DNA of 64,000 nt from Candidatus Parcubacteria bacterium (GCA_018664825.1 JABJNO010000017.1:163011-227010); one strand, 5' to 3'. Shown: positions 39,283 through 63,641, counted from the stretch's first letter. Numbers and translations are program-made. The notes: generated by a model not told the origin, from the letters alone.

Positions 39283-39318
39283 CATTAGCCAAATTCTTTG
39301 ATTTTTTTTGATCTTAAT

Positions 39319-39355: not shown

Positions 39356-39536
39356 CTATTGACAAAAATACGAAAATATGATAAAAATAGCGGTTTCATA
39401 TGTAATAAAAACAATGTATTACTCCCCTATTTTGACCTAACTAGTGGAGCTCATTTTTGGGCTATATCAGTGAGGCCAAAAGTCCTAGTTCATTAACAAT
39501 TGGTTTTGGTAAAAAAACAAAACGAAAGGAGAAAAT

Positions 39537-42262: not shown

Positions 42263-42290
42263 TCAAAAGGAGGCCTTTTCCGTTAAGACT

Positions 42291-43373: not shown

Positions 43374-43438
43374 GTGTTTCATTTTCTTTATTGATCAATC
43401 GATCAATATAAACTTTTCTTAAAACAAGGAGGAGCAAA

Positions 43439-44227
43439 ATGAGCTCACCCAACGTTAGTGATCTTTTCCAGACTGCTGCTGAAGAAGGCGAATTGTCTGC
43501 TGGTACCATGCAAGTTTTGCAGGTAGCCGACATTGGCGCCAAAATTCAGGGAGCCCTGGGAATTGGTGTCGATCAGTTTGAATCCAGCGAAACTACGCTA
43601 GTCACTCTGATGCCGGACGATTCTGGTAGCATCCGTTTTGCAAACAACACTCAGTTGATGCGAGATGGTCACAACTTGGTACTCGACTCTTTGTCGGACA
43701 CCAAGCAAGCCGACAACATCCTGGCTATGACCCGTTATCTCAATGGAGAAGTTCTCTTTCCTTACGGTCCACTGGCATCTGCCGTCCGTATGGATCAGGG
43801 CAACTACAATCCCAATCAGGGTACTCCGCTCTATGATGAGTCGGTAGTCTTGCTCGGCGCTGTCCTGGCCAAAGCTCAGGAATTTGCCGATGCTGGAATC
43901 ATGGCTCGGACAATCACCCTACTCATCTCCGACGGAGCTGATCAGCATTCTCGACACCACGGTGCGGCTGACGTCGCAAAATTGGTTGCCGACATGCTGA
44001 GTCAAGAACGCCATATCATCGCTGCCATGGGTATCGATGATGGTCACGGTACTGATTTCCACCAGATTTTTGCTGCTATGGGTATTCCCGCCGAGTGGAT
44101 TCTCACTCCGGGTACCGATGCTAGTGAAATCCGAGCGGCTTTCAATACTTTCTCCAAGTCGGCTGTTCGTGCTAGCCAAGGTGCTGGTAGTTTTTCCCAG
44201 ACTGCAATGGGAGGCTTCGGCGCTTAA
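43439..44227 (+). CDS. vWA-domain protein (TerY-like).
   Basis: MIDAS motif LMPDDSGSI (DxSxS) with downstream Thr and Asp positions. Size ~260 aa, typical of TerY. Terminator 44246..44285. Confidence 0.65.
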   Translation: MSSPNVSDLFQTAAEEGELSAGTMQVLQVADIGAKIQGALGIGVDQFESSETTLVTLMPDDSGSIRFANNTQLMRDGHNLVLDSLSDTKQADNILAMTRYLNGEVLFPYGPLASAVRMDQGNYNPNQGTPLYDESVVLLGAVLAKAQEFADAGIMARTITLLISDGADQHSRHHGAADVAKLVADMLSQERHIIAAMGIDDGHGTDFHQIFAAMGIPAEWILTPGTDASEIRAAFNTFSKSAVRASQGAGSFSQTAMGGFGA

Positions 44228-44398
44228 CCAAAACCAACAACGGTGGAGTGTGTACCAAAAGGTGCACACTCCACTACTCTATTTTTAGAAAAGTGTTACC
44301 AAATACTTTGGTGATAATTTTCTTACCTTAAATATTTTGAGGTAATGTGTTCGTTTACAAATGTTCAACAATCAACCACCACTCAAAAGGAGAAAAAG

Positions 44399-44995
44399 AT
44401 GTTTGATCATGGAATGCCCAGTAAAATAGTTTGGAATGGTTTCTACAAAGTAGAGCTAATCGAAATCCCTGGAGCTCCTCATCCCCTCGAAATCATCCAT
44501 GCTACTGACTCTGTCAGCGTCCTATTTTACAACCTTGCCGAGCGTTATGCCCTGCTGGTCCGCCAGCCCCGTATCGCTATGGCAACTGATAAAAATCCCG
44601 AAGGCATGATCACCGAAACAGTTGCTGGTCGCTTTGACCTCAAAATCGGTGCTCGTGGCCTGATCGTCAAGGAAGCTCTCGAAGAAGCTGGTGTCGAAAT
44701 CACCGAAGGCCAAATCGAAATGCTCAACAACGGTCAGCCTATGGCTCTCACCGCTGGATGTAGCACTGAAAAAGCCTATCTGGCTATCTGTGAAATCAAT
44801 GCAACTATGATCGAGGCTCAGGAAAGAGTCTTTGGCGTCAAAGACGAAGGCGAAGAGATCGAAAGAATCTTTATCCCCTTTGCTGATCTGGAAGAATACG
44901 TCTGTGAAGACCTGCGTGTCTTTACTCTCATCCAGTACCTACTCAGCAAGCTGACGACCAAGGCTATCACCAGGCTCATCGACGATGTCGTATAA
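44399..44995 (+). CDS. Nudix-fold hydrolase (ADP-ribose pyrophosphatase-like).
   Basis: ETVAGRFD...KEALEEAGVEI matches the REuxEExGu half of the Nudix box. SD AAAGGAG upstream of ATG at 44399. Confidence 0.5.
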   Translation: MFDHGMPSKIVWNGFYKVELIEIPGAPHPLEIIHATDSVSVLFYNLAERYALLVRQPRIAMATDKNPEGMITETVAGRFDLKIGARGLIVKEALEEAGVEITEGQIEMLNNGQPMALTAGCSTEKAYLAICEINATMIEAQERVFGVKDEGEEIERIFIPFADLEEYVCEDLRVFTLIQYLLSKLTTKAITRLIDDVV

Positions 44996-45029
44996 ACTTT
45001 CCAAACCCCTTAACACAAGGAGAATTCAC

Positions 45030-46280
45030 ATGGACAGACCAATCATCAAATCCCTGATGGACTTGGATTTTTACAAGCTCACCATGGGACAGTTGATATT
45101 TCTCATGTACGCTCACATTCCAGTGACTTTCAGTTTTATCAATCGTAGCATTGACGTGCAACTTCCAAAGCATATCAATGTCGATGAACTGCGCGAACAA
45201 CTGGAGCATGCTCGTACTCTGCGTATCAACCCCGATGAACTTGGCTGGCTGGTCAGTAGCACAAGTATTTCTGGAAAACGAATCTTACAAGATCCGTATC
45301 TGAAATTCCTGTCTACTCTGCGCTTGCCAGAGTTCAACCTCGAAGTTGATGATGATAGAAGATTGCACCTGCAATTTTATGGCCCCTGGTCAACAGTCGT
45401 TTACTGGGAGACCATTGCCCTCTCAATCATCAATGAGATGTGGTGTCAGAGCCAGATGAAGGATATGAGTCGCTTCGAACGCGACTTGATTTTGACCGAA
45501 GGCAAGATGCGTCTAGGAAAAAAGATAGCACTTCTCAATCAACCTCAATGTGAAGGCCTGACTTTTTCTGACTTCGGTACCCGTCGTCGTTTTTCTGGCG
45601 ATTGGCAGTCGTATGTAGTTGACGCTATGGCCAATGAGCTGACCCAAGCAAAATTCAGGGGAACTTCAAATGTTCGCCTGGCTATGGATCACCATCTCCG
45701 ACCAATCGGTACTTCGGCTCACGAATTACCGATGATCATGAGCGGTATTATGCACAAAAACGATGACTCTATCCGAGCTTCCAACCAGCAGGTTTTGACC
45801 GACTGGTGGAATCTTTACGGACATGAGCTGTCTATTTTCTTGCCTGATACCTATGGTACCAAGTTTTTCTTTGACAACCTGACTCATGAACAGGTAGTCA
45901 ATTGGAGAGGCTTCCGCCATGACAGTGGTGATGCTATCGAGTTTGGCGAAAAGGTCATTTCCTTTTATCAGTCTCATGACGTCGATCCTCGTGAAAAGAT
46001 AGTTGTTTTCAGTGATGGACTTGATATTGAAAAAATTATCAAGTTCTATGGTCATTTCAAGGGTCGCATCGACACCGATAATGGTTGGGGTACTACTCTG
46101 ACCAATGACATGGGATTACGTACCTTGTCTCTGGTAGTCAAAGCTACCGAGGCCTGTGGTCATGGCTTGGTCAAATTGTCTGACAATCTGGCCAAAGCTA
46201 CTGGTAACCCCACTGATGTTGAACGCTTCAAAAAGATCTTTGGTCACACCGTGACCACTCGTACTGAGTGTAAGGTCTAA
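45030..46280 (+). CDS. pncB: Nicotinate phosphoribosyltransferase (NAPRTase family).
   Basis: N-terminal LMDLDFYKLTMGQ and SDFGTRRRFS motifs. SD AAGGAG upstream of ATG at 45030. Confidence 0.75.
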   Translation: MDRPIIKSLMDLDFYKLTMGQLIFLMYAHIPVTFSFINRSIDVQLPKHINVDELREQLEHARTLRINPDELGWLVSSTSISGKRILQDPYLKFLSTLRLPEFNLEVDDDRRLHLQFYGPWSTVVYWETIALSIINEMWCQSQMKDMSRFERDLILTEGKMRLGKKIALLNQPQCEGLTFSDFGTRRRFSGDWQSYVVDAMANELTQAKFRGTSNVRLAMDHHLRPIGTSAHELPMIMSGIMHKNDDSIRASNQQVLTDWWNLYGHELSIFLPDTYGTKFFFDNLTHEQVVNWRGFRHDSGDAIEFGEKVISFYQSHDVDPREKIVVFSDGLDIEKIIKFYGHFKGRIDTDNGWGTTLTNDMGLRTLSLVVKATEACGHGLVKLSDNLAKATGNPTDVERFKKIFGHTVTTRTECKV

Positions 46281-46401
46281 CACCTGTGGTGGGTAGAACA
46301 AAACTCTACCCACCACTCTTTTCTCAAGTCACCAAAACTTTGGTGATTTAAAAAAGGAAAATGTTCATTTACAATCAAGGTTTAAAACAAAGGAGAAGGC
46401 G

Positions 46402-47373
46402 ATGATTAAGTACCTACTTGCCTATCGTGAGATGGGTGAACTAGCCAAAGCTCTTGGCGAGTCAATGGCAACTCAAGACTCTACAACCCTAGTACCCAAA
46501 CACATCGAATGGAATAGGTTTGAAAACAACTACCCCAACCTCTTTATACCCAAGGTAGAAGAGATCGATGGCAGTGATGTAGTTTTTCTGGCCAATTTGG
46601 AAAAACCGGAAACTATTTTTGAACAACTAGCCATCATCCATGCTCTGCCTCGTTATGGTGTCCGCTCCCTGACTATCGTCCTACCATATTTCCCTACAGG
46701 AACTATGGAAAGAGTCGACAACGAAGGTCAGGTTGCTACTGCCATGACTCTGGCTCGGCTACTTTCAGCTACACCCTTGACTATGAATGGTCCTGCTCGG
46801 ATTGTCATCTTTGACATCCATGCCTTACCTGAACGCTTTTATTTTGGTGACGCAGTGATACCTCAATTGGTATCGGCTATCCCTTTGCTAAAAAGCCGAC
46901 TGGTAAAATTTGCCGAGGAAACCGATGATCCTCTTGCTATCTGTTTTCCGGACGAAGGCGCCAGAAAAAGATTTGGCAACATGTTCCCTGGTTACCCGCA
47001 GATTATTTGTGACAAAATTCGCGATGGCAATTCTAGAAATGTAGTCATAAAAGAAGGCGATCCTCGTGGTTACCACGTAGTGATTGTCGATGATCTGGTA
47101 ATTAGTGGTGGCACTACCAATGAGTGCAAAAAAGTACTCTTTGCCAATGGAGCCGCTGCTGTAAGTGCTTATGTCACTCATCCTGCATTTCCTCAAAAAA
47201 GTTGGAAACGCTTCATCGAGCGTGATCCTGAAGGATTGAATTTCTCAAACTTCTGGATTACAGACTCTTGTCCAAATACGGTCAGTGAGATCTTTTCTTA
47301 CAACAAGCATCAGGGCCATGGTCCTTTTGAAGTTTTGTCTCTGGTAGACCCTCTACTGGAAATGCTTAGTTGA
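46402..47373 (+). CDS. prs: Ribose-phosphate pyrophosphokinase-like PRTase-fold enzyme. Atypical.
   Basis: PRPP/ribose-5-P binding loop VVIVDDLVISGGT and overall Prs architecture. The canonical catalytic flexible loop (PYxGYARQDR) is replaced by PYFPTGTMERVDNEGQ. Confidence 0.65.
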   Translation: MIKYLLAYREMGELAKALGESMATQDSTTLVPKHIEWNRFENNYPNLFIPKVEEIDGSDVVFLANLEKPETIFEQLAIIHALPRYGVRSLTIVLPYFPTGTMERVDNEGQVATAMTLARLLSATPLTMNGPARIVIFDIHALPERFYFGDAVIPQLVSAIPLLKSRLVKFAEETDDPLAICFPDEGARKRFGNMFPGYPQIICDKIRDGNSRNVVIKEGDPRGYHVVIVDDLVISGGTTNECKKVLFANGAAAVSAYVTHPAFPQKSWKRFIERDPEGLNFSNFWITDSCPNTVSEIFSYNKHQGHGPFEVLSLVDPLLEMLS

Positions 47374-47433
47374 TTTGATCTCATCAAACCATCTCTTGTC
47401 TAAAACAAGAATACTCAAACGAGGAGATAAACA

Positions 47434-48396
47434 ATGAAAAAACCTGGAATCTTGGAAAAAGATCAGTGCGAGGCTATTATTGGCCTAGCAGCAAGCTCAC
47501 TCTATGAATACTGTGAACATCATGGTATTCACTATGTAGTCACTGGATCTTCCGGTGGTTTGGATAGTGCTGTCACTCTAGCCTTGGCTCAACGAGCCTG
47601 CAAGATGGCCGCTGAGAATGACTTTGATCTCACCTCTGTGGGTTTGATCATGCCTTGTCATTCTGACGAGTCTGCCGAACGCCTCGGCAAGATGGTCATC
47701 GAAAAATTTGGTGCCGAACAGATCACTATTGATCTAACATCAAACTTTGACTATGCCACCAATCTAATTGATGGCACCAATAGCCAAATCACGCATATTC
47801 TCAGAACTACCGGCGGTGTTGATGCTATTGATCAGCTAGATTGGTCCAAGAATATTGCCCAAGGCAATATCAAAGCTCGTATGCGAATGATGTTTGGTAC
47901 TTACCACGTCGCTCGCATGATGAATGGGATGGTCCTATCTACTGACAACCTGTCTGAGTTTTGGATGGCCTTTTGGACTATCTGTGGTGATGTCGGCGAC
48001 TACGGCATGATCCAGAGCCTCCTCAAAGGTCTCGAACTTTACGACTTGGCTGATTGCCTGGGTGTACCCAAGGAAATCATCAACTCCAAACCCGATGATG
48101 GATTAAACGTCGGTAACGGTGATGAAGATCAACTGGGTGCTTCTTATCCAGTACTCGATCTAGTAATGATCGAGCTTATCCATCAGGGATTTGATCCCGA
48201 TGGCAGCCTCGACCAACTCATGACCCTACCTTCTGTCGAAGGTGTTGACCAAGACGTGGTCGTGAAATTGGCCAAACGTTGTTTGCGAGGTAGCTTCAAA
48301 CGACATGGTCCAATCGTACTTTCACGTGCTGAGCTTGGCTTAGCTGCAATTAAAAACCTTGACCTTGATATGATTCAAAATCATTTCAGGGACTAA
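47434..48396 (+). CDS. nadE: NH3-dependent NAD+ synthetase.
   Basis: PP-loop VTGSSGGLDSAV (SGGxDS). ~320 aa is typical for NadE. Confidence 0.8.
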   Translation: MKKPGILEKDQCEAIIGLAASSLYEYCEHHGIHYVVTGSSGGLDSAVTLALAQRACKMAAENDFDLTSVGLIMPCHSDESAERLGKMVIEKFGAEQITIDLTSNFDYATNLIDGTNSQITHILRTTGGVDAIDQLDWSKNIAQGNIKARMRMMFGTYHVARMMNGMVLSTDNLSEFWMAFWTICGDVGDYGMIQSLLKGLELYDLADCLGVPKEIINSKPDDGLNVGNGDEDQLGASYPVLDLVMIELIHQGFDPDGSLDQLMTLPSVEGVDQDVVVKLAKRCLRGSFKRHGPIVLSRAELGLAAIKNLDLDMIQNHFRD

Positions 48397-49381: not shown

Positions 49382-51142
49382 TTAAGCAATAAACCCACCT
49401 ACCTGTTTTTCCCATAACCTTTTATAGAGGCCTCCTGATTTCTTGATAAGCACTTGGTGGGTACCCTGTTCTACTATATTTCCTTTATCCAAAACTAAGA
49501 TTCTATCCATCTTCATGATAGTAGATAATCTATGAGCGACCACTATTACTGTTTTATCTTTCATAAGATTGGCTAAAGCATCTTGAATCATCTCTTCTGA
49601 TTCAGAATCCAAAGAGGATGTTGCTTCATCCAATATCAAAATTGGAGAATTTTTAAGTATAGACCGGGCAATAGCTACACGCTGACGTTCTCCTCCAGAA
49701 AGTTTTACTCCTCTTTCTCCAACATAGGTCTGATAAGCTTCGGGAAAATCATTTATAAATTTATCAGCATGTGCTAATTTGGCAGCTTTTTTAATTTCTA
49801 AATCTGTAGCCCTTGGCTGACCATAGCGAATATTTTCTTTGAGAGTCCTGTGAAACAATATTGGATCTTGATTGACCAAGGATATATTTTTCCACAAAGA
49901 ATCTTGAGTAACACCAATTATTCTTTGATCATCTATCAAAATCTTACCCCCATCAATATCATAATTTCTGAGTAATAAATTTATCAAAGTAGATTTTCCA
50001 GAGCCAGATGGTCCAATTAGGGCTATTTTTTCCTTGGCTTTAATATTTAAATTAAAATTAGAGATAATCTTACGAGTCTTATTATAAGCAAAAGATACTT
50101 TCTTAAATTCTATTTGCCCTCCTTTTACTTTTAATACCTTGGCAGTTTTTACATCTTGAATTTCATGAGGCTGCTCTAATATTTCAGTCATTTCTTCTGC
50201 TTCGGCCATAGCTTCATAATATTTTCTAATAATACGACCAAAATTCCATAATCTCATCATAATAGTAATCAAATAAGTTTGAATCAAAACAAATTCACCC
50301 ACACTTATAATACCTTTTTGCCATAATGAAATAGCATAATACATAATACCAATCTCCAAAACCATCATAAGTAAAGTCTGAGCAGCTTCAAAATAATTAG
50401 CTAAATTCCAAGTGAATTGCCTCAATTTTTGTAATTGACCAGTTGCTGTTTTAAAATGCTTTCTCTCTCTGCTGTAGCCGGTAAATAATTTTAAATTTAA
50501 ATGGTTGGTAATAGTGTCAGCTAAAACTCCGGTGACTTTAGAATTTAATCCTGCTCTTTGCACATCGTATTTTAATTTGTACAAAGAAAAATAATAATTA
50601 ACTAGCATATAAATTATTATCCATATCAGTATTCCTAAACCTAGCCATATGTTTCGCTTACCTAAAAATATAATAATCAAAAATAAGTTTACGAAAATTG
50701 GTAAAAAATCCCAAAAAATTAAATCTGTCACCACTTCAAAAGATCTAGAAAATCTATTTACTTTTTTGACTAGTGATCCTACAAAATTATTATTGAAAAA
50801 AGAAATAGAATGCTTGTGCATATATGCAAAAGATGAGTTGGATATACTAGCCATAGCATTGGTCTGAAAGTATGCTGTCAAAAATGTAGCTGCTCTCCAA
50901 AAAATCCAAGAACTCAAATAAACGGCCAATACTTTCATCAAGGTAATTTTGAGCATTGGAATCTTATCAAGAGTATTATCTGAACTAGTTAGGATATCAA
51001 AAAAGTCTTTATAATATAACGGTCCAATGACATGACCAAGCGAAGCAATGGTTATAGAAACGATTATAAACCAAGGAGCCCATCTATATTGTACTAGATG
51101 TTTCCAAAAAATTTTAAATGTTTGTTTTGTTAAATACTGCAT
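49382..51142 (-). CDS. ABC exporter, fused permease and ATPase (MsbA-like).
   Basis: Six TM helices, then Walker A GPSGSGKST, signature LSGGERQRVAIAR, Walker B ILILDEATS. -10 TATAAT lies only ~9 nt before the ATG, so the transcript may be leaderless. Confidence 0.85.
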   Translation of the reverse strand: MQYLTKQTFKIFWKHLVQYRWAPWFIIVSITIASLGHVIGPLYYKDFFDILTSSDNTLDKIPMLKITLMKVLAVYLSSWIFWRAATFLTAYFQTNAMASISNSSFAYMHKHSISFFNNNFVGSLVKKVNRFSRSFEVVTDLIFWDFLPIFVNLFLIIIFLGKRNIWLGLGILIWIIIYMLVNYYFSLYKLKYDVQRAGLNSKVTGVLADTITNHLNLKLFTGYSRERKHFKTATGQLQKLRQFTWNLANYFEAAQTLLMMVLEIGIMYYAISLWQKGIISVGEFVLIQTYLITIMMRLWNFGRIIRKYYEAMAEAEEMTEILEQPHEIQDVKTAKVLKVKGGQIEFKKVSFAYNKTRKIISNFNLNIKAKEKIALIGPSGSGKSTLINLLLRNYDIDGGKILIDDQRIIGVTQDSLWKNISLVNQDPILFHRTLKENIRYGQPRATDLEIKKAAKLAHADKFINDFPEAYQTYVGERGVKLSGGERQRVAIARSILKNSPILILDEATSSLDSESEEMIQDALANLMKDKTVIVVAHRLSTIMKMDRILVLDKGNIVEQGTHQVLIKKSGGLYKRLWEKQVGGFIA

Positions 51143-51164: not shown

Positions 51165-51239
51165 TGGCTCCGGGGGCAGGATTCGAACCTGCGATATCCA
51201 CGTTAACAGCGTGGCGTTGTACCACTCAACTACCCCGGA
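51165..51239 (-). tRNA. tRNA-Asn (anticodon GUU).
   Basis: Manual fold. Acceptor UCCGGGG/CCCCGGA, D-loop AGUGGUA, anticodon loop CUGUUAA, T-loop UUCGAAU, CCA. Confidence 0.85.
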
Positions 51240-51382
51240 AAATTAAAAAAACCGATCATCTGGACCGGTCAACTATGATTATATTATAAAAAAGCCGCCG
51301 GTATTAAAATCGGTTATTATTATTTAAATTGTTGGCTTTCTTATACATCATGTCTATATATTAACATAAAAACTCATATTTG

Positions 51383-51859
51383 TCAATTCCCTATTTTCTT
51401 TAGAATAACATCGATTTCATGAAGGACATTTTCAAACATCGGCAAAGTCTTTAAGTCACTCACCCCAAACCAACCAATGTCGTGAGATTCTTTTATTTGA
51501 CGACTTACCTTTTGCATAGGCACTTCAAAGACATAAACAAAATCTATATGATAGTGTTCTGGTTGACCACCATGAGGATCTATTGTTTCTTCCAAAATAA
51601 AAGTAGGCACTGGTAAAATCTTTGCTCGATCATCTATTTTTTTGACTTCCTGTAAAAAAGGTCTAATATCTACACCTGATTCTTCTTTTACTTCCCTGAC
51701 CGCTGCTTCAATAGGATTTTCCAATTTTTCTATATGACCACCAGGAGGCATCCATTTGTCAAACTTTTTGTGATGGGTCAACAAAATCTTACGAGGTTTT
51801 GCCTCGGATACCACAAACACAGTTGCTGTATATTGTTTTTGTCCTTTTACTATATCCAT
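51383..51859 (-). CDS. Nudix hydrolase.
   Basis: GGHIEKLENPIEAAVREVKEESG canonical Nudix box. Confidence 0.75.
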   Translation of the reverse strand: MDIVKGQKQYTATVFVVSEAKPRKILLTHHKKFDKWMPPGGHIEKLENPIEAAVREVKEESGVDIRPFLQEVKKIDDRAKILPVPTFILEETIDPHGGQPEHYHIDFVYVFEVPMQKVSRQIKESHDIGWFGVSDLKTLPMFENVLHEIDVILKKIGN

Positions 51860-51914
51860 AGATAGATTCTAACACAAAATAAAAACCCCGCCAATTTCTT
51901 GACGGGGTTGTTTG

Positions 51915-53639
51915 TTAGTTGGTTATTGGCTCAGCAGCCTTCTGGTGAGCACGAGCACGTCTACGCAACTTTTCACCTTCAGTGATCTGAGCGACCTGCA
52001 TCTGGAGAAAATCTCCGATAAAGGTCTTTGTCACTGCTTCGTGGTCAGTCGGTAGACCAAACTCAGTCAAGGCCAAGATAGCCACTGTCTCTTGATAGCG
52101 AATCAGATAAGCATCTTTTACTTCACACCTGAACCACAACTTGTGACTACAGTTGAAAGTCAAAATGCCATTTTCGCGATCAAAAGTATATGCTTCACTG
52201 GAGCGAGGCATATAATCAAAGGCGAATTGCAGACCACTGCTACTACCTTTGACAGTCTTTCGCCTCTGACCCTTTGGACCTTGGACCGTGATAGGAGTGT
52301 GACCCTGCATCTCATCGGGTCGGACTCTATCCTTGCCCTTGGCACCAGACCCCTTGCCCGTGTCTTTGAGCTTGGGAGCTGACATCGCAGGATTATCCTG
52401 CGTAGCCTTGGGAGGCAAATCAGCATGACCTTTTCCGGTCGTGCCAAAAGCAAAATTCTCGATCAGGTCTTTGAGACCTCTTTGCTCAAGAATACCCTCG
52501 ACTACCGAAATAGCTACCAAACCAAGTCGCTGAAAGCGAGCCTCTTTGGAGCTATTTTGGATCTCACCCATGATCTCCTTGCCAACTTTGTTCCACCACT
52601 CTTCGATGCACATACACATGTCAACGAAGTTGTCGCTGTCCACAAACCGCTTACGGTCAGGATGGAGCTTGACGCGAGTAGCGGTGATTTCACCCTCAAA
52701 TATTCCTGATCTGAGAGCATCTATCGCTTCTTCGGGGAGGCCCAAAGATTTGACCTTGTCCCAAAAAGTCTTGGTAGTAAAACGAAATTCATCGTTTCGT
52801 TCACCAAAAAGTACCTTACCTCTCCGATCTTTCTTCTTGCCCTGCTTGGGGGCAATAAAAAGATCAAAGTAAGTAACTACTTTACTATCAGCTACCTCGA
52901 AAATCACCGGTTCGATAGGCTGGCCCTCAAAGCCAGATGCCTCAACCTTGTATGCCCTTTTGGCATTGGATTCATCGATATAATCAATATCAACGACCAC
53001 GCCACGCTTGTGCATGACTGTGCCAAAACGCTCCAAAATAGCGCCGTTGAGTTGATGAGGAGTCAGACGGGTAAGCTCCCTATCCTTGGTGATTTTCATC
53101 ACTCTCACCTGAGTACGCCAATCGACATAAATAGGCGTCCTGCCGCGAGCAGACCTCTTTTTGGAAGTCTCACGTCCAGGAGCATAGGTGTGCCACTTGA
53201 GCGGTGTCATGGGAATACCTTCCCCAACTACCAAGCCCTTGACCTCATCCGAGATAAACTTCCACTCGACATATGCATTGACGCCGTTTGCCTTTGCGCA
53301 AGACGTAAAGGTAAACATGTCACACTTATCGAGCGGAGAAATCAATCCCCGACCGAAACGACCAAGTTTTCCACTTGTCTTCATGGTCTGAAAAATCTGA
53401 CCAAGAGCCTGCTCAAACTTGTCCTTGGTGACACCTTCGCCGTCATCCATTACTTCGAGAGTCCGTTTTGAAAGATTCAGTTTGACTCGGATATTTTTGG
53501 CATTGGCATCTAGTCCATTTTGGATAATCTCCAAAATGAAATCCTGAAGATAAGGATAACACTGAGCGGCTGCCAAAAGCGCTCCTCCTAAATGTACACC
53601 AAGCTTACTTTCTCCAGCAGTCGCACGTCGAGCGTTCAT
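51915..53639 (-). CDS. GHKL-superfamily ATPase (MORC/MutL/HSP90-like Bergerat fold) with a Gly/Lys-rich linker and unknown C-terminal domain.
   Basis: Motif I ILEIIQNGLDANAKNIRV (ExxxNxxDA), motif II VMDDGEGV (DxGxG), G-rich motif III GKLGRFGRG. GC ~48%. Terminator 51880..51907. Start overlaps the upstream gene stop (ATGA). Confidence 0.65.
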   Translation of the reverse strand: MNARRATAGESKLGVHLGGALLAAAQCYPYLQDFILEIIQNGLDANAKNIRVKLNLSKRTLEVMDDGEGVTKDKFEQALGQIFQTMKTSGKLGRFGRGLISPLDKCDMFTFTSCAKANGVNAYVEWKFISDEVKGLVVGEGIPMTPLKWHTYAPGRETSKKRSARGRTPIYVDWRTQVRVMKITKDRELTRLTPHQLNGAILERFGTVMHKRGVVVDIDYIDESNAKRAYKVEASGFEGQPIEPVIFEVADSKVVTYFDLFIAPKQGKKKDRRGKVLFGERNDEFRFTTKTFWDKVKSLGLPEEAIDALRSGIFEGEITATRVKLHPDRKRFVDSDNFVDMCMCIEEWWNKVGKEIMGEIQNSSKEARFQRLGLVAISVVEGILEQRGLKDLIENFAFGTTGKGHADLPPKATQDNPAMSAPKLKDTGKGSGAKGKDRVRPDEMQGHTPITVQGPKGQRRKTVKGSSSGLQFAFDYMPRSSEAYTFDRENGILTFNCSHKLWFRCEVKDAYLIRYQETVAILALTEFGLPTDHEAVTKTFIGDFLQMQVAQITEGEKLRRRARAHQKAAEPITN

Positions 53640-54373
53640 GAATTCACCTTCCCGATTTGAGCTTTGAGCTCAGCCATGAAAATCTTGCGAGATTCTTTGC
53701 TGCAGAGAGCCAGAAGCATTCTGGCCAACTCTTGCAAACCATCATCTGGGATGCTGTTACGAAGTTCCCGACGCTCAGCGTCGCTAAACTTGTCGCTAAG
53801 TAAATACATTGCGACCGGCATCATTGCTTGAACCTGATGTCCGAGAACACCGATAGTTGCCTGGTGTCTTAGAGAATCCGGATCGTGAGACGATACCATG
53901 GGCCGAGTGGGCTTATTGGCTTCTTCCTTTTTCTTGTAAGGAGCCAAAAAACGATTCCACTTGTCCCTAGCACTTTGCCTAGAAGAAAATTTTTGTCTTC
54001 CAACCAACAATGCCAACAATGAATCATGAGCTTTGAATCCCAAGGATTCCTGAGCAAAATCAAATGTGACTTCGCCATCAGAAAAGATCTCCGCCAAACG
54101 ACGTACACATCGATGAATGGCCTTGAGCTCCTGGCAAAGATATCCTTGCCTTTCCAAAAAAACTCGGCATCGAACCAAATTTTCACCAATAGGCATGACA
54201 CTGCCTGTTACCCAACGGTAAACTGCGCGATCAACCATATTGGTATAGTCTGCCATGGGCTTTCGTGCCCCTTTGGCTGCTCTACCTGTTGCTAAAGTTT
54301 CACCATAAGCAATTAGGCATTCCTGGGTTGTACCGACGAATTTGTATCCGCCTGCATTGTTTCCATCATTCAT
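53636..54373 (-). CDS. Hypothetical protein (~245 aa) translationally coupled to the GHKL ATPase.
   Basis: SD AAGGAG 5 nt upstream of ATG at 54373. GC-rich like its partner. No motif recognised. Confidence 0.5.
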   Translation of the reverse strand: MNDGNNAGGYKFVGTTQECLIAYGETLATGRAAKGARKPMADYTNMVDRAVYRWVTGSVMPIGENLVRCRVFLERQGYLCQELKAIHRCVRRLAEIFSDGEVTFDFAQESLGFKAHDSLLALLVGRQKFSSRQSARDKWNRFLAPYKKKEEANKPTRPMVSSHDPDSLRHQATIGVLGHQVQAMMPVAMYLLSDKFSDAERRELRNSIPDDGLQELARMLLALCSKESRKIFMAELKAQIGKVNS

Positions 54374-54568
54374 CTCTTCTCCTTCCAAGGGTGTGAGGTG
54401 TTGACTATCTATTGTTTCTTGAAAAGCTATAACCAACTTATCAAAGAACCCTTATATATGAACGTAATTGTCCATAATACAACAATATAAAATAACATTT
54501 TTAGTAAAATCTGTCAACATTTAAAAAACTCCCAAAAAAGGGAGTTTTTTATAAATTACTGAGCAAAT

Positions 54569-57241
54569 CTAAGTCCTGTGCCTTTTACGATAAGTGATAA
54601 ATATCCATTTTACAGTCTCTATCAATAAGAGACCTATTACAATAACGCCCATAAGTATCTCCCATTCTTGCCAGCCCAGAGGAACTGTTCTCAAGACACG
54701 ATTGAAAAAAGGAATATATATTGAGGATAGTTGCAAAAATAATCCCAACACAACTGCGGCATTTAAATATTTATTTCTAAATGGTTTTGATTTCAAAATA
54801 ATCCTATCCAAACTTTTTACACTAAATACATAAAATAAAGTATCAATACCCAAGGCTGTAAAAGTAACTGTTCTAGCCAAATCTAGATTACCTGTCTCTT
54901 TCCAAAAATAATAAAATAATCCCAAACTGCTACCACTAGTAATCAAACTAATAATAACAATCAAAACTCTTCCTTCAAAATCAACTAAGGATTTTTCTTT
55001 TGTTGGCCTCTTGTTCATAATTTCTGGATCCTCAGGCTCCATAGTCAGGGCTAATGCCGGGAAGCCATCACTAACCAAGTTGACCCACAAAATCTGTGCA
55101 GCCAAAATTGGTAATGGAATTTGCAACAACAAACTACCTACAATAATCAAAACTTCTGAAAAACTATCAGACAGCAAATATAAAATTACTTTTTTGATGT
55201 TTGCAAATATCACCCTCCCCTGCTTGATAGACATCACGATAGTTTCAAAATTATTATCAAGCAAAACTAGATCCGCAGTTTCTTTGGCTACATCAGAACC
55301 GCTAAATACAGCTACTCCTATATCAGCAGCCTTGAGCGCCGGCGCATCATTGACGCCATCGCCAGTCATAGAGACTATTTCTCCTTTTTTTTGCCAAGCA
55401 TTGATAATACGTAATTTATCAGCCGGCGTCACCCGAGCATAAACTTTTATATCTTTGATTCTTTTACTCAGTTCTTCGTCTGTCATTTTGAGAAGCTCAT
55501 CGCCAGTCACCACAGTGTCCTTGGTTGTGGCTATGCCTAGATCTTTGGCAATCTTGTTGGCAGTAAATTTATTATCACCCGTGATAATAACAGTCTTGAT
55601 GCCGGCAGACAGTGTCTTGGCCAATGTCGCCTTTGTCTCTGGACGAAGTGGATCAGATAATCCCCAAATACCTACAAAAGTAAAACCCTTAGGCTCATCC
55701 TTGAAATCATCAAAGTCTTTGAAATTTTTTGATACCAAACGATAACCACCACCCAAAACACGCAAACCTTTTTTACTAGCTTCTTGCCATTTTTTATTAA
55801 AAAGATCTTCTTTGGCTTTGGTGAGCTTGCTAGTTTTTTTACCATCTAAATATTTATCTGAAAAACTAAGCATTTTTTCTGGAGCACCCTTGATAAACAA
55901 AATATCCTGCCTAGCGTCATAGCTATGCCTAGTTATCATATATTTTCGGAGAGAATCAAAAGGAATCTCTTCTAAACGAGGATATTTTTTGTTTAAGCCT
56001 TTTAAGTCATATCCCCTGGAACCAAACAATAACAAAGCTTTTTCTGTTGGACTACCTATCACCAACCAAGTATCTTGACTATCTTTTGGATTTTGAACAA
56101 TCGAATCATTACACAAAAAGGCAGTGTGCCCCAACATAGTAAGCTCTTTGTCTATGTCCATATCCCGCAAAGATTCCACCGCCAAATCCACCTGATGGCT
56201 AGCAGAGATAAGCTGAGTAACCCTCATCTCACCCTCGGTCAAGGTGCCTGTCTTGTCTGTACAAATCACAGTAGTAGAACCCAGTGTCTCGGCAGATACC
56301 AATTTTCTAACCAAACCATTGTGCTTGAGTATCCTCTGCATACCAACTGTCAAAATCATAGTCATACTTATGACCAATCCCTCAGGAATAGCAGAAACCG
56401 CGACTGCGACCGCCATAGTAAACATATGAGCCCATTCATATCCCTGAACAATACCCAAAACAAACAACAGGAACACAATAACCATGATTATCTTGGTGAT
56501 ATTTTTGGCAAAATTATCAAGTCTTTTTTGTAAAGGTGTTTTTTCTTCTTTGGTTTCTTTGAGTAATTGTGTAATCTTGCCCATCTCAGTTTGAAGGCCT
56601 GTGCTCGTCACTACTACCTGAGCCCGCCCTTCTACTATCAAAGTACCCATAAAAACCATATTGCTTCTTTCTGCCAATACAGTCCCTACATCCAAGGTAC
56701 CCAATTTTTTCTTGACTGGCCAAGATTCTCCTGTTAGCGAAGCTTCATTGACTTCAAAGTCATTGAGAATAACCAAGTATCCATCAGCCGGCACTCTATC
56801 TCCTGATTGCAACAAAATAATATCTCCTGGTACGAGTTCATTTGCTTCTACTTTTTTTTCGTGTCCACTTCGCAAAACAATACTTTCTTTTTTGACAATC
56901 TTGTTTAGTTTTTCCAAAGACTTGTTGGCTTTGTACTCTTGAAAAAACCCAACTACTACATTGAGAAAAACTGCTGCAAAAATAACATAAGCATCTACAA
57001 ACTCTCCAAAAAAGAAGCTCACAGCACCAGCAATCAATAAAACATACACCAAAGCACTTTTAAATTGTGATAAAAGCAAACGCCAAGCAGAAAACTTTTC
57101 TGCCTGAGCTAAAATGTTTAAACCATGTTTATTTAGACTTTTCTTGGCCTCATCATCAGACAAGCCTTGTTTGCTACTATTTAGCTGCTTCAAAACTTGA
57201 GCCGAGCTTAAAGTGTGCCAATTGATATCAATCTTTGACAT
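54569..57241 (-). CDS. Cation-transporting P-type ATPase (P2-type, Ca2+/Mg2+-like).
   Basis: DKTGTLT phosphorylation site, TGES, MTGDGVNDAPALK hinge, 10 TM helices. Confidence 0.85.
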   Translation of the reverse strand: MSKIDINWHTLSSAQVLKQLNSSKQGLSDDEAKKSLNKHGLNILAQAEKFSAWRLLLSQFKSALVYVLLIAGAVSFFFGEFVDAYVIFAAVFLNVVVGFFQEYKANKSLEKLNKIVKKESIVLRSGHEKKVEANELVPGDIILLQSGDRVPADGYLVILNDFEVNEASLTGESWPVKKKLGTLDVGTVLAERSNMVFMGTLIVEGRAQVVVTSTGLQTEMGKITQLLKETKEEKTPLQKRLDNFAKNITKIIMVIVFLLFVLGIVQGYEWAHMFTMAVAVAVSAIPEGLVISMTMILTVGMQRILKHNGLVRKLVSAETLGSTTVICTDKTGTLTEGEMRVTQLISASHQVDLAVESLRDMDIDKELTMLGHTAFLCNDSIVQNPKDSQDTWLVIGSPTEKALLLFGSRGYDLKGLNKKYPRLEEIPFDSLRKYMITRHSYDARQDILFIKGAPEKMLSFSDKYLDGKKTSKLTKAKEDLFNKKWQEASKKGLRVLGGGYRLVSKNFKDFDDFKDEPKGFTFVGIWGLSDPLRPETKATLAKTLSAGIKTVIITGDNKFTANKIAKDLGIATTKDTVVTGDELLKMTDEELSKRIKDIKVYARVTPADKLRIINAWQKKGEIVSMTGDGVNDAPALKAADIGVAVFSGSDVAKETADLVLLDNNFETIVMSIKQGRVIFANIKKVILYLLSDSFSEVLIIVGSLLLQIPLPILAAQILWVNLVSDGFPALALTMEPEDPEIMNKRPTKEKSLVDFEGRVLIVIISLITSGSSLGLFYYFWKETGNLDLARTVTFTALGIDTLFYVFSVKSLDRIILKSKPFRNKYLNAAVVLGLFLQLSSIYIPFFNRVLRTVPLGWQEWEILMGVIVIGLLLIETVKWIFITYRKRHRT

Positions 57242-59221: not shown

Positions 59222-59298
59222 TGGTGCGCCCAGAGGGATTCGAACCCCCGACCATCAGCTTAAAAGGCTGTTGCTCTACCAGGCTGAGCTATAGGCGC
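59222..59298 (-). tRNA. tRNA-Lys (anticodon UUU).
   Basis: Manual fold. Acceptor GCGCCUA/UGGGCGC, D-loop AGCCUGGUA, anticodon loop CUUUUAA, T-arm GGGGG-UUCGAAU-CCCUC, CCA. Confidence 0.8.
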
Positions 59299-59441: not shown

Positions 59442-60533
59442 ATGCCTGGCAAAATCGTACATCGGGCTTCACTGGCCTGGGAAAAATGGAGTCCATCCAA
59501 AATCAACACCGCTACATCCTGTCCTCTACGCTGCTATTATGAATATATGTTGCGTATGCGAGGTGAACGTTTCCCTTTGACCGTGTTTGGCTCTGCCTTG
59601 CACTATATGTTTGAAAAATTCTTCAAGGCTCACAAAAAAACCGGCAACTTCCCCTATCAGGAAGTCCGTAAATTCCAAAATGTCTGGAAAGGCTTTTGGT
59701 GGCGAGCAGTTGCAGGAAATCATGGTTTTTCCAACATGGGATCTGATCCCGAAGAAGTGCCCTGGAGAGACAGCGAACAAGTCGGACAACTCTTTGGATC
59801 AGGCTGGAATATTTTGGGTAAATTCTATGACCGCTATCAACCTTTTCGTATGGCTGGGAATATTCATATTCCCGAAAGAAGATTTACTTTTGATTTTTGT
59901 GGTTTGACCCTCAATGGAGTAATTGATCGCATCGATCTTTTTGATAACCATGCAGTCATCCTCGATTACAAAAGTAGAGTCTTCCCCAAACACGAACAAA
60001 TGACCGGCACTCAACTGACTGCCTACCAACTAGCCTATCAACAATACCTACGCAATCATATCGGCCAAGGCCGACCTTTGCAGAGTATGCAAGTCTATGG
60101 CTACTGGAAAGATGCTGTCCAAGATCTCCCTCTCAGGGATGATTATCAAATTGGTATGCTATTTTACTATATGTTGGAAGCTAGCGAATATTATCGTAGT
60201 ATCCTCACCGGACGTCCTGTCCGCAGAGAAATCATCGAACGCTTTCGATTTTTCCCTGAAGAGGATATTGAAACTGGTAATATCTCGCCTCGGCTACCTC
60301 GTGGTAATCACTGCACCTACTGTGAAAACGTTGAGACCTGTCTAGCCTGGGAAAAGGGAGAACATGACACTCCTCGTAAGTTGTTTGCTGATAAGCACAA
60401 AGAAAAATGGGATGCCAAAACTCCCACTCAAATTTCTCTGCCTTTTCAGTTCAGCCCCGTTGTCCGCATCGGTGCAAACAATTTTTACAGATTAAAAAAT
60501 CTGCCCTTTATAGAGCAGACCTCCTTGTTCTAA
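59442..60533 (+). CDS. PD-(D/E)xK nuclease of the RecB/Cas4-like family with probable Fe-S Cys cluster.
   Basis: GVIDRIDLFDNHAVILDYKS (D...D/ExK core), N-terminal Cys (SCPLRC) plus C-terminal CTYCENVETC. GC-rich relative to flanks. SD AAGGAGG. Terminator 60546..60580. Confidence 0.65.
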   Translation: MPGKIVHRASLAWEKWSPSKINTATSCPLRCYYEYMLRMRGERFPLTVFGSALHYMFEKFFKAHKKTGNFPYQEVRKFQNVWKGFWWRAVAGNHGFSNMGSDPEEVPWRDSEQVGQLFGSGWNILGKFYDRYQPFRMAGNIHIPERRFTFDFCGLTLNGVIDRIDLFDNHAVILDYKSRVFPKHEQMTGTQLTAYQLAYQQYLRNHIGQGRPLQSMQVYGYWKDAVQDLPLRDDYQIGMLFYYMLEASEYYRSILTGRPVRREIIERFRFFPEEDIETGNISPRLPRGNHCTYCENVETCLAWEKGEHDTPRKLFADKHKEKWDAKTPTQISLPFQFSPVVRIGANNFYRLKNLPFIEQTSLF

Positions 60534-60564: not shown

Positions 60565-61098
60565 TTATCTTTTCCAAAAATTATCAAAAAATGTATCTAC
60601 ACTTGATATGATCAATGCCTTGCTTACCAAACCACTGCCAGCCAATTTCATTCTCTTTTCTAGATGGATATAATCCTGACCATGACTAAAACCCAAAACT
60701 CTATGAGCAAAATTATTTCCTTCTATAGCTCCTGTATATTTATCACCCACCTTTATTTCTACTTCTCCCAAATTGCTCTCCAACATTATACTAAAAATAT
60801 TTTGATCAAGATTTATAGCTTCGCCCTCTATCTCTACACCTGGACCAACCTCACTAAATACATTGTCTATACCAGCTGACAATCTAGCTCGACTATCTTC
60901 TCTCAAATAATTCATCCTACTTTTTAAAACCTCTATTTCATCTTCTATATATTGTTTTTGGGTTATAAAATTTCTGCCCTCTCGAGCAAGGCCCCGATCT
61001 TTTTTTAGACCTCCTAAGTTGTCCGAATATTTAGCCACCTTATCTTTGATGCTAGCTAATTCTTCTTCTATTAAATTTTTACAAATTGGATCTTTCAT
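60565..61098 (-). CDS. Paralog 1 of a tandem small-protein family (177 aa).
   Basis: N-terminal MKDPICKNL and internal IKVGDKY...VLGF. Family resemblance to the six genes upstream. Confidence 0.5.
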   Translation of the reverse strand: MKDPICKNLIEEELASIKDKVAKYSDNLGGLKKDRGLAREGRNFITQKQYIEDEIEVLKSRMNYLREDSRARLSAGIDNVFSEVGPGVEIEGEAINLDQNIFSIMLESNLGEVEIKVGDKYTGAIEGNNFAHRVLGFSHGQDYIHLEKRMKLAGSGLVSKALIISSVDTFFDNFWKR

Positions 61099-61100
61099 AT

Positions 61101-61652
61101 TTATATTCTTGCAAAACCATCAAACCAAGTTTCATCAAAACTTGTTGCAAATGCTTTATTATTATATTTTTCATTTTCGCCTTTATACAACAAAATAGGA
61201 TCACTATCCTCCTCTCCTTTTTGCTTTGTAAAACCAACTACAATAAACTCATCTCCTGGAAAAATCTGAAAAAAACCAAAAGCCCCTACAACTTTAAATC
61301 TATCTCCTGTATTTAATTTCTCAAATAATTCCTGTCCAAGGCCATCTCTACCCATAGATCTGTTTATCATCAAAGTATTTGGATCAGGAGTCAGCTTAAT
61401 ACCTCTCCCCTCTATATGTTCATATTTTTGCCTCATCAACTTTAGCTTATCAGAATTAAAAAGTAATGAACCAAAGGCAAGCCTAAATCTCATAAGCTCC
61501 TGATGAAAATTACTAATACTTATATGCGCATCTTCAATAGCTGTAATATCTCTATCTTTTTGACCACTTTCAAAATAATCATCAAAATCTTTTTTGTATG
61601 AAAGTACATGATCAAATTTTACTTTTAATTTGTCACAAATTTTTTTATCCAT
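61101..61652 (-). CDS. Paralog 2 (183 aa).
   Basis: MDKKICDKL N-terminus (identical to paralog 5). NTGDRFKVVGAFGF / FIVVGF motifs. Confidence 0.5.
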   Translation of the reverse strand: MDKKICDKLKVKFDHVLSYKKDFDDYFESGQKDRDITAIEDAHISISNFHQELMRFRLAFGSLLFNSDKLKLMRQKYEHIEGRGIKLTPDPNTLMINRSMGRDGLGQELFEKLNTGDRFKVVGAFGFFQIFPGDEFIVVGFTKQKGEEDSDPILLYKGENEKYNNKAFATSFDETWFDGFARI

Positions 61653-61657
61653 ATATT

Positions 61658-62176
61658 TTATAATAATCCAAAATCTCTCTCTGGCCCAACTTTATAAGAA
61701 GATAGGCCATCTTCATCGATAGTATAATGTATTTTTGTTATCCTACCCCTGGCTTCTACAATCAACTCTTTAGTATGCACTCTAAAGCCAACTATTTTTA
61801 TTCTCATTTTAGCCGGCTCATATTCTTTATTGTTATACTTCATTCTCAGGCCCTTGGCTGCTCTCATCTCATCACCAATCCTAAAAACATAACCATCAAT
61901 CTCCACGCTCTCAGCAAAAGAAGCATAAACCTCGGTGTTCTTTATAGTCATATATCTTTGTCCAGAAGTAGACCTCAGGGTAGCCTGCCAACTTTCTAAT
62001 ATTCCATCTCCATCATAGTCCATCCTGCGATACAATCTACTCCTGATTTGTTCAAAACCATCTACAAATTTTCCTATTTGTTCTGATTTATCAAAAGCAT
62101 CATCAAAATCAACTAGCCAAGACTTAGCCTTGTTTAGCTCCCCTCTCCATTCTTTACAAAGTTCTGCTTTTGTCAT
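61658..62176 (-). CDS. Paralog 3 (172 aa).
   Basis: MTKAELCKEW N-terminus. FRIGDEM...RIKIVGF motif. Confidence 0.5.
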   Translation of the reverse strand: MTKAELCKEWRGELNKAKSWLVDFDDAFDKSEQIGKFVDGFEQIRSRLYRRMDYDGDGILESWQATLRSTSGQRYMTIKNTEVYASFAESVEIDGYVFRIGDEMRAAKGLRMKYNNKEYEPAKMRIKIVGFRVHTKELIVEARGRITKIHYTIDEDGLSSYKVGPERDFGLL

Positions 62177-62179
62177 ATT

Positions 62180-63153: not shown

Positions 63154-63157
63154 ATAT

Positions 63158-63640: not shown

Positions 63641-63641
63641 A

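Follow-up and report, generated by a model that had tools for sequence, protein, structure and literature searches.

What do two overlapping, GC-rich genes near a tRNA gene do together, and how did they come to lie there? The genes are on the minus strand of a 64-kb window of Candidatus Parcubacteria bacterium (GCA_018664825.1 JABJNO010000017.1:163011-227010), the window being the whole stretch of DNA that was analyzed, and they encode a GHKL ATPase of 574 aa and a partner protein of 245 aa. An earlier reading made from the sequence alone (the sequence-only reading) had described them as a GC-rich islet at tRNA-Asn in which a MORC/MutL-like ATPase is coupled to an unknown partner. The results support a real and obligate module of two genes whose proteins co-evolve. 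Our favored reading of its role, held tentatively at a little under even confidence, is that of a DNA clamp serving as a conflict module, with exclusion, entrapment, or silencing of invading DNA as its outcome.

The two-gene module and its proteins

The open reading frame (ORF) calls bore out the two minus-strand genes, which follow a P-type cation ATPase and are followed by a NUDIX hydrolase, tRNA-Asn, and an ABC exporter (Table 1). Direct reading recovered the ATGA at 53636..53639 that the sequence-only reading had reported as common to the partner stop and the ATPase start. The terminator it had placed at 51880..51907 was found at 51909..51884, as a hairpin of 11 pairs with a T-run directly 3' of the ATPase stop. 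The partner starts at ATG 54373 with GGAGAAGAG ahead of it, confirming the length of 245 aa; initiation at an in-frame TTG, at 54436, would lengthen it to 266 aa. Upstream lie a -35 hexamer, TTGACA, and a -10 hexamer read as TATTTT with an upstream TG. The window and three related loci (L002, L003, and L004) share an identical -35 hexamer and an identical ATGTTATTTT block of 10 nt, and because these are invariant although the arginyl-tRNA synthetases (ArgRS) of these loci are only 55-77% identical, the promoter at 54517..54489 is probably real. Promoter, partner, ATGA-coupled ATPase, and terminator form one self-contained minus-strand operon.

Loci from other genomes were retrieved with one conserved peptide pattern, flanking genes being simple longest-ORF calls, and relatives of the partner were collected as the upstream ORF at each locus encoding an ATPase relative (a word-indexed search gave only three). 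A homologous partner gene was present upstream of the ATPase gene, on the same strand, in 32 of the 32 other loci (L001-L032). These partner ORFs encode ~160-460 aa (typically 210-330), end at, overlap, or lie within ~45 nt of the ATPase start, and belong to one family (phmmer E 1e-80 to 1e-5; a single blast linkage cluster). The partner diverges faster than the ATPase, and the distance matrices of the two proteins, calculated over shared columns, correlate at r = 0.85, a value reached in 0 of 5000 Mantel permutations. The two-gene cassette of the sequence-only reading was thus recovered at every locus.

The family is found mainly in genomes of ultra-small bacteria of the candidate phyla radiation (CPR)/Patescibacteria. 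A homologue search gave 40 homologous clusters, which were used for the alignment, and a search of 1.84 billion representatives gave 463 clusters at 50% identity (E <=1e-30), the best 150 of which are nearly all ~540-610 aa long. A pattern scan of one genome per species, covering 185,579 species, returned 29 loci; 23 of them carry CPR labels (19 Saccharibacteria-class and 4 Parcubacteria/Paceibacterota/Minisyncoccia/Sungiibacteriota). L003 and L004 come from metagenome-assembled genomes labeled Gammaproteobacteria, with 33% GC and the tRNA-Lys/ArgRS/P-type ATPase/cassette order of the window, so that their labels are probably wrong. Contigs of 3.5-12.5 kb carry the labels Bdellovibrionales, Thermotogae, and Acidobacteriaceae; all four of these non-CPR labels may be binning errors. 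In a neighbor-joining tree, one clade was purely Saccharibacteria and the other mixed Saccharibacteria with Parcubacteria-type lineages, indicating old transfers between CPR classes.

The 129 neighbors of the 29 loci are diverse housekeeping genes (GroEL, DnaE, ArgRS, P-type ATPases, and response regulators), among which were one type II methyltransferase, three weak SduA matches, and no helicase theme. The restriction-modification (R-M) neighborhood of MORCs and paraMORCs, with a superfamily II helicase, a methylase, and a restriction-fold nuclease, was not found at the 29 loci. No curated model describes the family, and the strictly conserved module is unnamed; full-text searches on paraMORC, bacterial or prokaryotic MORC, GHKL ATPases, and CPR defense turned up no GHKL-S5 system partnered with a helix-turn-helix (HTH) protein.

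A third gene was observed directly upstream of the partner in nine loci (L005, L006, L007, L009, L011, L014, L015, L024, and L030), abutting or overlapping it (for example, 6882..7238 in L014 and 2258..2560 in L030). Its product has ~95-120 aa with a KGWRA..ARP motif and no match in Pfam, NCBIfam, or PHROG, and the gene is missing from the window and from the Saccharibacteria-only clade. A single copy of the cassette was present in IMG/VR, at 7271..9635 of L032 (IMGVR_UViG_3300013121_000020, 354 kb). It is flanked by ThyX, dUTPase, sulfatase, and glycosyltransferase genes on one side and by methyltransferase and beta-helix genes on the other, and this contig may come from a huge phage or may be CPR genome sequence that was misclassified.

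A further observation concerns the two ends of the operon. The 5' untranslated region (UTR) at 54429..54438 is perfectly complementary over 10 nt to the ATPase stop region at 51916..51925. At the homologous place in L002, 8 nt are complementary (4834..4841 with 7386..7393), where a change in one arm is matched by a compensating change in the other (T/A in the window, C/G in L002), and in L001, 11 nt that include the partner Shine-Dalgarno pair just past the stop (7358..7368 with 9697..9707). The complementarity was not above chance in the remaining loci. It could be a relic of terminal inverted repeats or a means of mRNA end-pairing. The Rfam scan of the window returned four tRNAs only and no other known RNA element.

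In the ATPase, Pfam HATPase_c_3 matched aa 35-137 (E 9e-14; 52 bits against a cut-off of 25), as it matched 40 of 40 aligned family members. The Bergerat-fold motifs listed in the sequence-only reading were confirmed by this match and by conservation in 173 family sequences, in which E37, N41, and D44 (ILEIIQNGLDA), D65, G67, and G69 (DDGEG), and G93, G96, and G98 (GRFGRG) are kept at at least 95%. With motif IV (S113) included, the residues of motifs I-IV, by which the GHKL (Bergerat-fold) superfamily is recognized, are conserved at 93-100%, and the positions conserved in at least 85% of members are E37, Q40, N41, D44, D65, G67, G69, K87, G93, G96, G98, K105, C106, and S113. Because the Bergerat residues are intact, the ATPase should be able to bind and hydrolyze ATP. 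None of the models of Pfam, NCBIfam, PADLOC, or PHROGs reached past the HATPase_c_3 domain; the NCBIfam sacsin N-terminal domain matched at E 1e-10, and Pfam SACS matched weakly in 18 of 40 members.

The sequence-only reading had named a canonical MutL or HtpG as the finding that would overturn it, and hidden Markov models of both were scored. TIGR00585 (MutL), with a cut-off of 180 bits, scored 27.1, other MutL models were also far below their cut-offs, only aa 32-84 align to MutL chains, and Pfam found no MutL_C domain in the family; unlike MutL/PMS, it thus has no C-terminal dimerization/endonuclease domain. No linkage to mutS was seen at the loci. The HtpG models gave 14.8 bits against 371 (NF003555) and 17.3 against 455 (NF010683). 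These scores, together with the missing C-terminal domain in the case of MutL, rule out both canonical proteins.

The likeness to MORC stood in part. The MORC signature GhXhhpXXRhl was taken from PMC2292703 and searched as a regular expression in the window protein, where it had no match, and in the 173 members, where only two scattered matches occurred. Since the signature is missing, the ATPase is paraMORC-like and not a strict MORC, and its sequence places it in what appears to be an undescribed paraMORC-like family. With paraMORC1-5 and the prokaryotic MORCs (PMC2292703), this family shares an N-terminal HATPase_c_3 domain, an S5 transducer, a family-specific C-terminal extension, and a sporadic distribution with lateral transfer. 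However, it lacks the association of the prokaryotic MORCs with superfamily II helicases, methylases, and restriction endonucleases, and it differs from the paraMORCs in its obligate XRE-HTH partner, its mainly CPR hosts, and a new C-terminal module (long helix, beta domain, and further helices). Unlike paraMORC3 (type I-D Shedu), the ATPase has no DUF4263 or SduA match in Pfam or PADLOC, and unlike paraMORC4, no TIR domain, which was also not found in the partner or the neighbors. Neither the ExxxH of paraMORC2 nor the HxH of paraMORC5 is among columns at least 70% conserved, these families having been compared by motif only, and the conserved histidines H16, H405, H447, and H499 do not lie within HxH or ExxxH.

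All structures in this analysis are predictions. The AlphaFold2 (AF2) model of the ATPase, built on 40 sequences, had a mean predicted local distance difference test score (pLDDT) of 84 and a predicted template modeling score of 0.66, and it shows the domains of Table 1 with short strands between the 50-residue helix and the linker. The predicted transducer is basic (net charge +4.7), with conserved W174, R175, D186, R286, SGxFEG (311-316), and an invariant R329, which we infer to be a phosphate-sensing finger; R175 and R286 are ~87% conserved in the 173 sequences. The predicted S5-type second domain with its conserved basic residue would place the protein in the GHKL-S5 subgroup, so that the GHKL-S5 module of the "MORC/MutL-like" label is retained, whereas the MORC signature and the MutL thresholds are not reached. 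By fold, 260-300 ATPase residues align to the two-domain modules of MutL, SMCHD1, and MORC, the closest folds to this module, and uS9 matches too. The top Foldseek ranks were full-length Hsp90 chains (template modeling (TM) score 0.32-0.39, E 1e-13 to 1e-14, and 410-460 aligned columns).

The Gly/Lys-rich linker of the sequence-only reading was seen as a disordered stretch, with pLDDT <50 at aa 427-438 and block means of 46-54 over aa 421-440. It is 35-66 aa long across the family with a net charge of about 0 (mean +0.4), and on this basis a role as a DNA-binding tail was rejected. The C-terminal region consists of five strands (450-496) followed by helices, including one of 39 residues (531-569). 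H447, P449, G454, G457, R460, S467, G469, G491, N496, and H499 are conserved there, as is H405 just before the linker. A profile search of the PDB with the C-terminal 187 aa gave a TFIIA beta-segment as the sole match, at an insignificant E of 0.045, and the fold search of the C-terminal third gave no significant match either; the domain remains uncharacterized, as had been noted, and it may hold a catalytic site or form a DNA- or partner-binding tip.

The partner, listed as unknown in the sequence-only reading, can now be assigned an HTH at the family level. Between a conserved N-terminal region (family pattern A.F.G....TV..WL.G...P.GE.L.RL...L...GY...EL) and a conserved helical motif at the C terminus (PLA..l.SD.FT.E.R..LR.L.G.DG.F.L.N.L.RLCSERAR; alignment A2), it has a hypervariable linker of low complexity, 32-247 aa long across the family. 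Pfam HTH_3 matched 5 of 31 partner family members (best E 7e-6), other HTH families matched as well, and PHROG transcription-regulator families matched two members. The AF2 model of the window partner was built on 4 sequences; its pLDDT is 82-88 over the greater part of aa 11-80 and falls to 63-68 at aa 81-100. The Foldseek search that the sequence-only reading had suggested returned nearly all XRE-type HTH proteins for the N-terminal domain, although every match was weak (E >=0.36); they included P22 c2, lambda cI, ClgR, and the R-M controllers C.Kpn2I, C.BclI, and C.AhdI. An XRE-type HTH is well supported in the partner family and probable in the window partner itself. The C-terminal region matched no family in the libraries scanned and was of low confidence in AF2; aa 176-245 may form an ATPase-docking module.

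History and composition of the locus

The order of ArgRS (opposite strand), P-type ATPase, partner, and ATPase is kept in the window, L002, L003, L004, and a 168-kb contig, P0005. Identities to the window in L002 and L003 were 77% and 55% for ArgRS, 78% and 59% for the P-type ATPase, 53% and 37% for the partner, and 72-73% and 42% for the GHKL ATPase. In L003, the cassette proteins (42% and 37%) have therefore evolved faster than those of the flanking genes (55% and 59%). Third-base identity at conserved four-fold sites of the ATPase gene was 0.50 against L002 and 0.30 against L003, compared with 0.38-0.54 and 0.34-0.49 for the flanking genes, and since these values are like those of the flanks, the cassette should be about as old here as its neighbors. 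The ATPase gene is functional, judging by 72-73% amino acid identity to L002 despite near-saturated synonymous sites. In the window clade, the sequence comparisons thus support vertical inheritance of the cassette at one locus under purifying selection.

The placement of the islet at tRNA-Asn did not hold. The pair lies within the interval given for the islet (51165..54436), but tRNA-Asn and the NUDIX gene fall outside the cassette, and the distance measured from the ATPase stop is 676 bp, with the NUDIX gene between, and not 2.2 kb. This NUDIX gene is host-like (GC content at third codon positions (GC3) 0.26; 82% identical in L002). The cassette is on the 5' side of the tRNA gene, no integrase or transposase was found near the pair, the tRNA-Asn 3' 25-mer has no second copy in the window even at <=3 mismatches, and no att-like direct repeats flank the cassette. 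The missing integrase and att repeats, the wrong tRNA side, and the same locus in four syntenic relatives argue strongly against a tRNA-Asn-integrated island. The sequence-only reading had named presence at the same locus in relatives together with core-like GC as evidence against itself; the former was found and the latter was not.

The pair has 47% GC with sharp boundaries, close to the ~48% first given; the background is not uniformly ~33%, with flanks of 0.30-0.34 (50-51.5 kb) and 0.30-0.42 (54.5-57 kb), a 10-kb block at 44-52% GC (39.5-49.3 kb), and several isolated genes that are GC-rich too. The GC excess is a family-wide trait and not a marker of recent arrival in the window. At 30 of 32 loci, GC content is higher in the pair than in the flanks (mean +8 points). 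At 28 of 29 loci, the GC3 of the ATPase lies above the mean of the flanks (by +0.19 on average; Wilcoxon p = 2e-8), that of the partner exceeds this mean by +0.12, and only 17 of 260 flanking genes reach the GC3 of the ATPase. Cassette GC3 follows host GC3 (slope 0.83, r = 0.75; host flank GC3 0.24-0.71). Given the vertical history, incomplete amelioration after recent transfer cannot explain the excess in the window clade. The cassette may be prone to recombination and subject to GC-biased gene conversion, it may have been replaced repeatedly from donors of higher GC, or its nucleotide content may be under selection.

The other GC-rich genes of the window are mostly Pfam-less or accessory, and its aminoacyl-tRNA synthetase genes are AT-rich at third positions. 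Isolated GC-rich, Pfam-less genes at 2049..3512, 13755..14615, and 31043..31924 have GC3 0.43-0.48 against a baseline of 0.22-0.34. Such scattered islets suggest that accessory genes here are systematically GC-richer than the core. Accessory genes are usually AT-biased, and the GC3 excess of this accessory cassette, which opposes that bias, is a separate evolutionary puzzle.

Possible role of the module

An HTH subunit, a complete MORC/SMCHD1/MutL-type engine, a basic transducer, translational coupling, and co-evolution together point to a DNA-directed two-protein machine, with a partner that would target or load an ATP-gated dimeric clamp. In the clamp that we tentatively favor, the partner would use its HTH to bind DNA and its conserved C-terminal helices to dock the ATPase. 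ATP binding would dimerize the GHKL heads through the N-terminal strap, with R329 sensing phosphate, and the clamp would close around DNA, held by the basic transducer and an arm made of the long helix and beta domain. The effector could be compaction itself or an unrecognized catalytic site formed by the C-terminal His/Arg/Asn cluster. R-M controller (C) proteins are encoded by XRE-HTH genes just upstream of the enzyme gene, which they often overlap. C.AhdI, C.BclI, and C.Kpn2I, all among the top structural matches of the partner, share this kind of placement, and by analogy with them the HTH may also autoregulate the conserved promoter. However, C-proteins have ~80 aa and are purely regulatory, whereas the partner has 245 aa with a hypervariable linker and a co-evolving C-terminal module.

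The family is rare and patchy (29 loci in 185,579 species), evolves faster than its neighbors, has a hypervariable partner linker, has been transferred between classes, and has a third gene in nine loci, all of which is consistent with a role in conflict. Related GHKL-S5 families act in R-M or defense contexts (PMC2292703, PMC12137116), and a defense role is plausible. VcSduA, a paraMORC3-type Shedu, is a compact anti-phage protein with a GHKL domain and a DUF4263 nuclease, in which the ATPase is proposed to gate the effector (PMC12137116). It has a GHKL ATPase of the same broad class, but it is one polypeptide with a PD-(D/E)xK nuclease, whereas the window ATPase lacks DUF4263 and has a separate HTH partner.

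Several results weigh against a clamp in conflict. Searches of both proteins for effectors gave no nuclease, helicase, methylase, TIR, or other such domain. PADLOC-DB v2 matched only the Bergerat fold (ATPase aa 34-99, to TmtA) and not the partner, and the PADLOC check on both proteins and the 129 neighbors gave Bergerat-fold matches and no catalogued system, contrary to the defense context that had been suspected. The 129 neighbors of the 29 loci showed no enrichment of integrases, transposases, mobile elements, or defense islands, and tblastn on phage and plasmid collections found no cassette. Synteny is stable, and an empty site was not found with thin sampling; a metagenome scan with the adjacent P-type ATPase gave one identical contig and five distant non-syntenic loci. 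The window partner is below every HTH threshold, with no match at E <=1, and its model is poor past aa 100 (pLDDT <55). A protein-directed role keeps some weight, because Foldseek ranks full-length Hsp90s first, at TM scores of ~0.37-0.39. Finally, DNA binding, dimerization, partner-ATPase contact, and autoregulation are all steps that we infer.

A narrower version of the clamp, which we consider rather unlikely, is a nuclease-free bacterial counterpart of adaptor-guided MORC/SMCHD1 silencing, in which the HTH would load the clamp on particular DNA, foreign or AT-rich, and entrapment or compaction would then silence that DNA. MORC2, MORC3, and SMCHD1 are eukaryotic DNA-compacting, silencing GHKL ATPases recruited by adaptors such as LRIF1. 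Unlike these proteins, to which its identity is 11-13%, the window ATPase has no CW, hinge, UBL, or chromatin-reader domain and is bacterial. If silencing were the function, the GC3 excess would reflect self-avoidance or turnover driven by recombination. To our knowledge, few immune systems have been recognized in CPR bacteria, and the module would then represent lineage-typical CPR immunity or genome control and a prokaryotic model for MORC mechanics. The eukaryotic MORC silencers are believed to descend from prokaryotic MORC-like ATPases, whose biochemistry in bacteria is poorly understood (PMC8011034). With just two proteins, one of them a clear targeting subunit, this conserved, unnamed CPR/Patescibacteria module, both proteins of which are hypothetical in NCBI, is a minimal system suited to reconstitution of GHKL clamp loading on DNA.

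Among the rivals, a lineage-specific housekeeping DNA factor survives best, although we regard it as unlikely. The module would be a MutL-like repair matchmaker or a nucleoid-organizing clamp with a DNA-binding loader, employed by certain CPR bacteria on the host chromosome itself, which agrees with its housekeeping neighbors and stable synteny, the purifying selection, and MutL, SMCHD1, and MORC as its nearest folds; SMCHD1 likewise needs a loading factor, LRIF1 (PMC13434421). However, presence at only 29 loci in 185,579 species does not fit a general CPR function, and faster evolution than the flanks, non-core composition, movement between CPR classes, MutL scores far below cut-off, and the lack of a MutL C-terminal domain also argue against it.

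We consider a toxin-antitoxin or addiction module less likely again. An autoregulating HTH antitoxin, for which HipB-HipA and C-proteins with their restriction enzymes are models, would neutralize a toxic GHKL ATPase through its C-terminal domain, and loss of the module would be lethal. The HTH gene precedes the ATPase gene and overlaps it by 4 nt, the pair has a promoter and a terminator to itself, R-M controllers are among the fold matches of the partner, the two proteins co-evolve tightly, no other neighbors are conserved, and the distribution is patchy with horizontal transfer. Set against this, both proteins are far bigger than typical type II components and contain no known toxin domain, and the long vertical retention at one locus does not fit. 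Addiction modules are common on plasmids and phages, yet the cassette is absent from both collections. The complete MORC/MutL-like two-domain engine suggests mechanical work and not simple poisoning.

The last two rivals are both very improbable. In the first, the ATPase would be an Hsp90/sacsin-like protein remodeler and the HTH protein merely a transcriptional regulator or client adaptor. It shares a three-part layout with Hsp90/HtpG (GHKL domain, middle domain containing a basic catalytic residue, and helices at the C terminus), the invariant middle-domain Arg recalls the catalytic Arg of Hsp90, and the Foldseek ranking and the sacsin and SACS matches point the same way. However, the TM scores are only 0.32-0.39, the HtpG models are far under cut-off (14.8/371 bits), the middle domain is basic, and an HTH partner that has a conserved C-terminal module independent of ATPase length and co-evolves at r = 0.85 is more than a regulator. 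In the second, a recently acquired GC-rich islet at tRNA-Asn carrying a compact anti-phage cassette, the sharp-edged 47% GC, the nearby tRNA gene, and the transfers between CPR classes in the ATPase tree are outweighed by the lack of an integrase, transposase, tRNA 3' duplicate, or flanking repeats, the position 5' of the tRNA behind a host-like NUDIX gene, the gene order and flank-like four-fold identity shared with relatives, and the family-wide GC excess.

Feature coordinates and other parts of the window

Table 1. Coordinates of the cassette, its predicted domains, and adjacent genes in the window
Feature	Position	Strand	Basis or detail
P-type cation ATPase gene	54569..57241	-	
Probable sigma70-type promoter	54489..54517	-	consensus scan 10/12 with TG; TTGACA, 17-nt spacer, extended -10 TGTTATTTT
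5' UTR, ~115 nt, with Shine-Dalgarno GGAGAAGAG	54374..54488	-	direct sequence reading
10-nt element AGTTGGTTAT in 5' UTR	about 54429..54438	-	complementary to ATPase stop region
Partner gene, 245 aa	53636..54373	-	ORF call; NCBI hypothetical protein MBT4849942.1
Partner N-terminal helical domain, probable lambda-repressor/XRE-like HTH, ~aa 10-100	54074..54346	-	family Pfam, AF2, Foldseek
Partner C-terminal conserved helical region, aa 176-245	53639..53848	-	alignment A2
GHKL-S5 ATPase gene, 574 aa	51915..53639	-	ORF call; NCBI hypothetical protein MBT4849941.1
Predicted Bergerat ATP-binding domain with N-terminal strap, aa 18-137	53229..53588	-	
Predicted transducer, ribosomal-S5-domain-2-like, aa 143-335	52635..53213	-	
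Predicted 50-residue helix, aa 336-386	52482..52634	-	AF2, pLDDT mostly 85-96
Predicted disordered Gly/Lys/Pro/Glu-rich linker, aa 406-446	52302..52424	-	lowest-confidence internal AF2 stretch
Predicted C-terminal beta-rich domain and helices, aa 447-574	51918..52301	-	
Intrinsic terminator	51884..51909	-	11-pair stem (6 GC), 4-nt loop, T-run
NUDIX hydrolase gene, AT-rich	51383..51859	-	
tRNA-Asn	51165..51239	-	
ABC exporter	49382..51142	-	

Elsewhere in the window, a GC-rich block on the plus strand (38506..48396; 0.44-0.52 against a baseline of 0.33-0.38) encodes, in order, an NrtR-like Nudix/winged-helix regulator, a PP2C phosphatase, a 622-aa weakly kinase-like protein, three Pfam-less ORFs, NAPRTase, a Prs-like protein, and NadE. 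The pairing of a Prs-like protein with a member of the NAPRTase family is one that we take to recall the NAD+-reconstitution genes of phage NARP1. From PP2C onward, the P0005 contig has this order too, immediately next to the GHKL cassette. On the plus strand at 59442..60533, beside tRNA-Lys (59222..59298), lies another gene of atypical composition, a GC-rich PD-(D/E)XK nuclease gene (PDDEXK_1, E 6e-22; GC3 0.43), ~5 kb from the cassette and not conserved at the syntenic loci L003 and L004. At 28198..30918, the minus strand has a tandem pair of class-II aminoacyl-tRNA synthetase genes, both of the Asp/Lys/Asn type (472 and 429 aa). Near the end of the window, a tandem array on the minus strand (60565..63980) contains seven small same-strand ORFs (112-183 aa) that match no Pfam family, in a region of strong negative GC skew (-0.3 to -0.48). 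Only one pair of these ORFs is blast-significant (24%, E ~2e-7), most share a 'GD...(K)..VGF'-type motif, and by sequence the seven appear to be very divergent paralogues.

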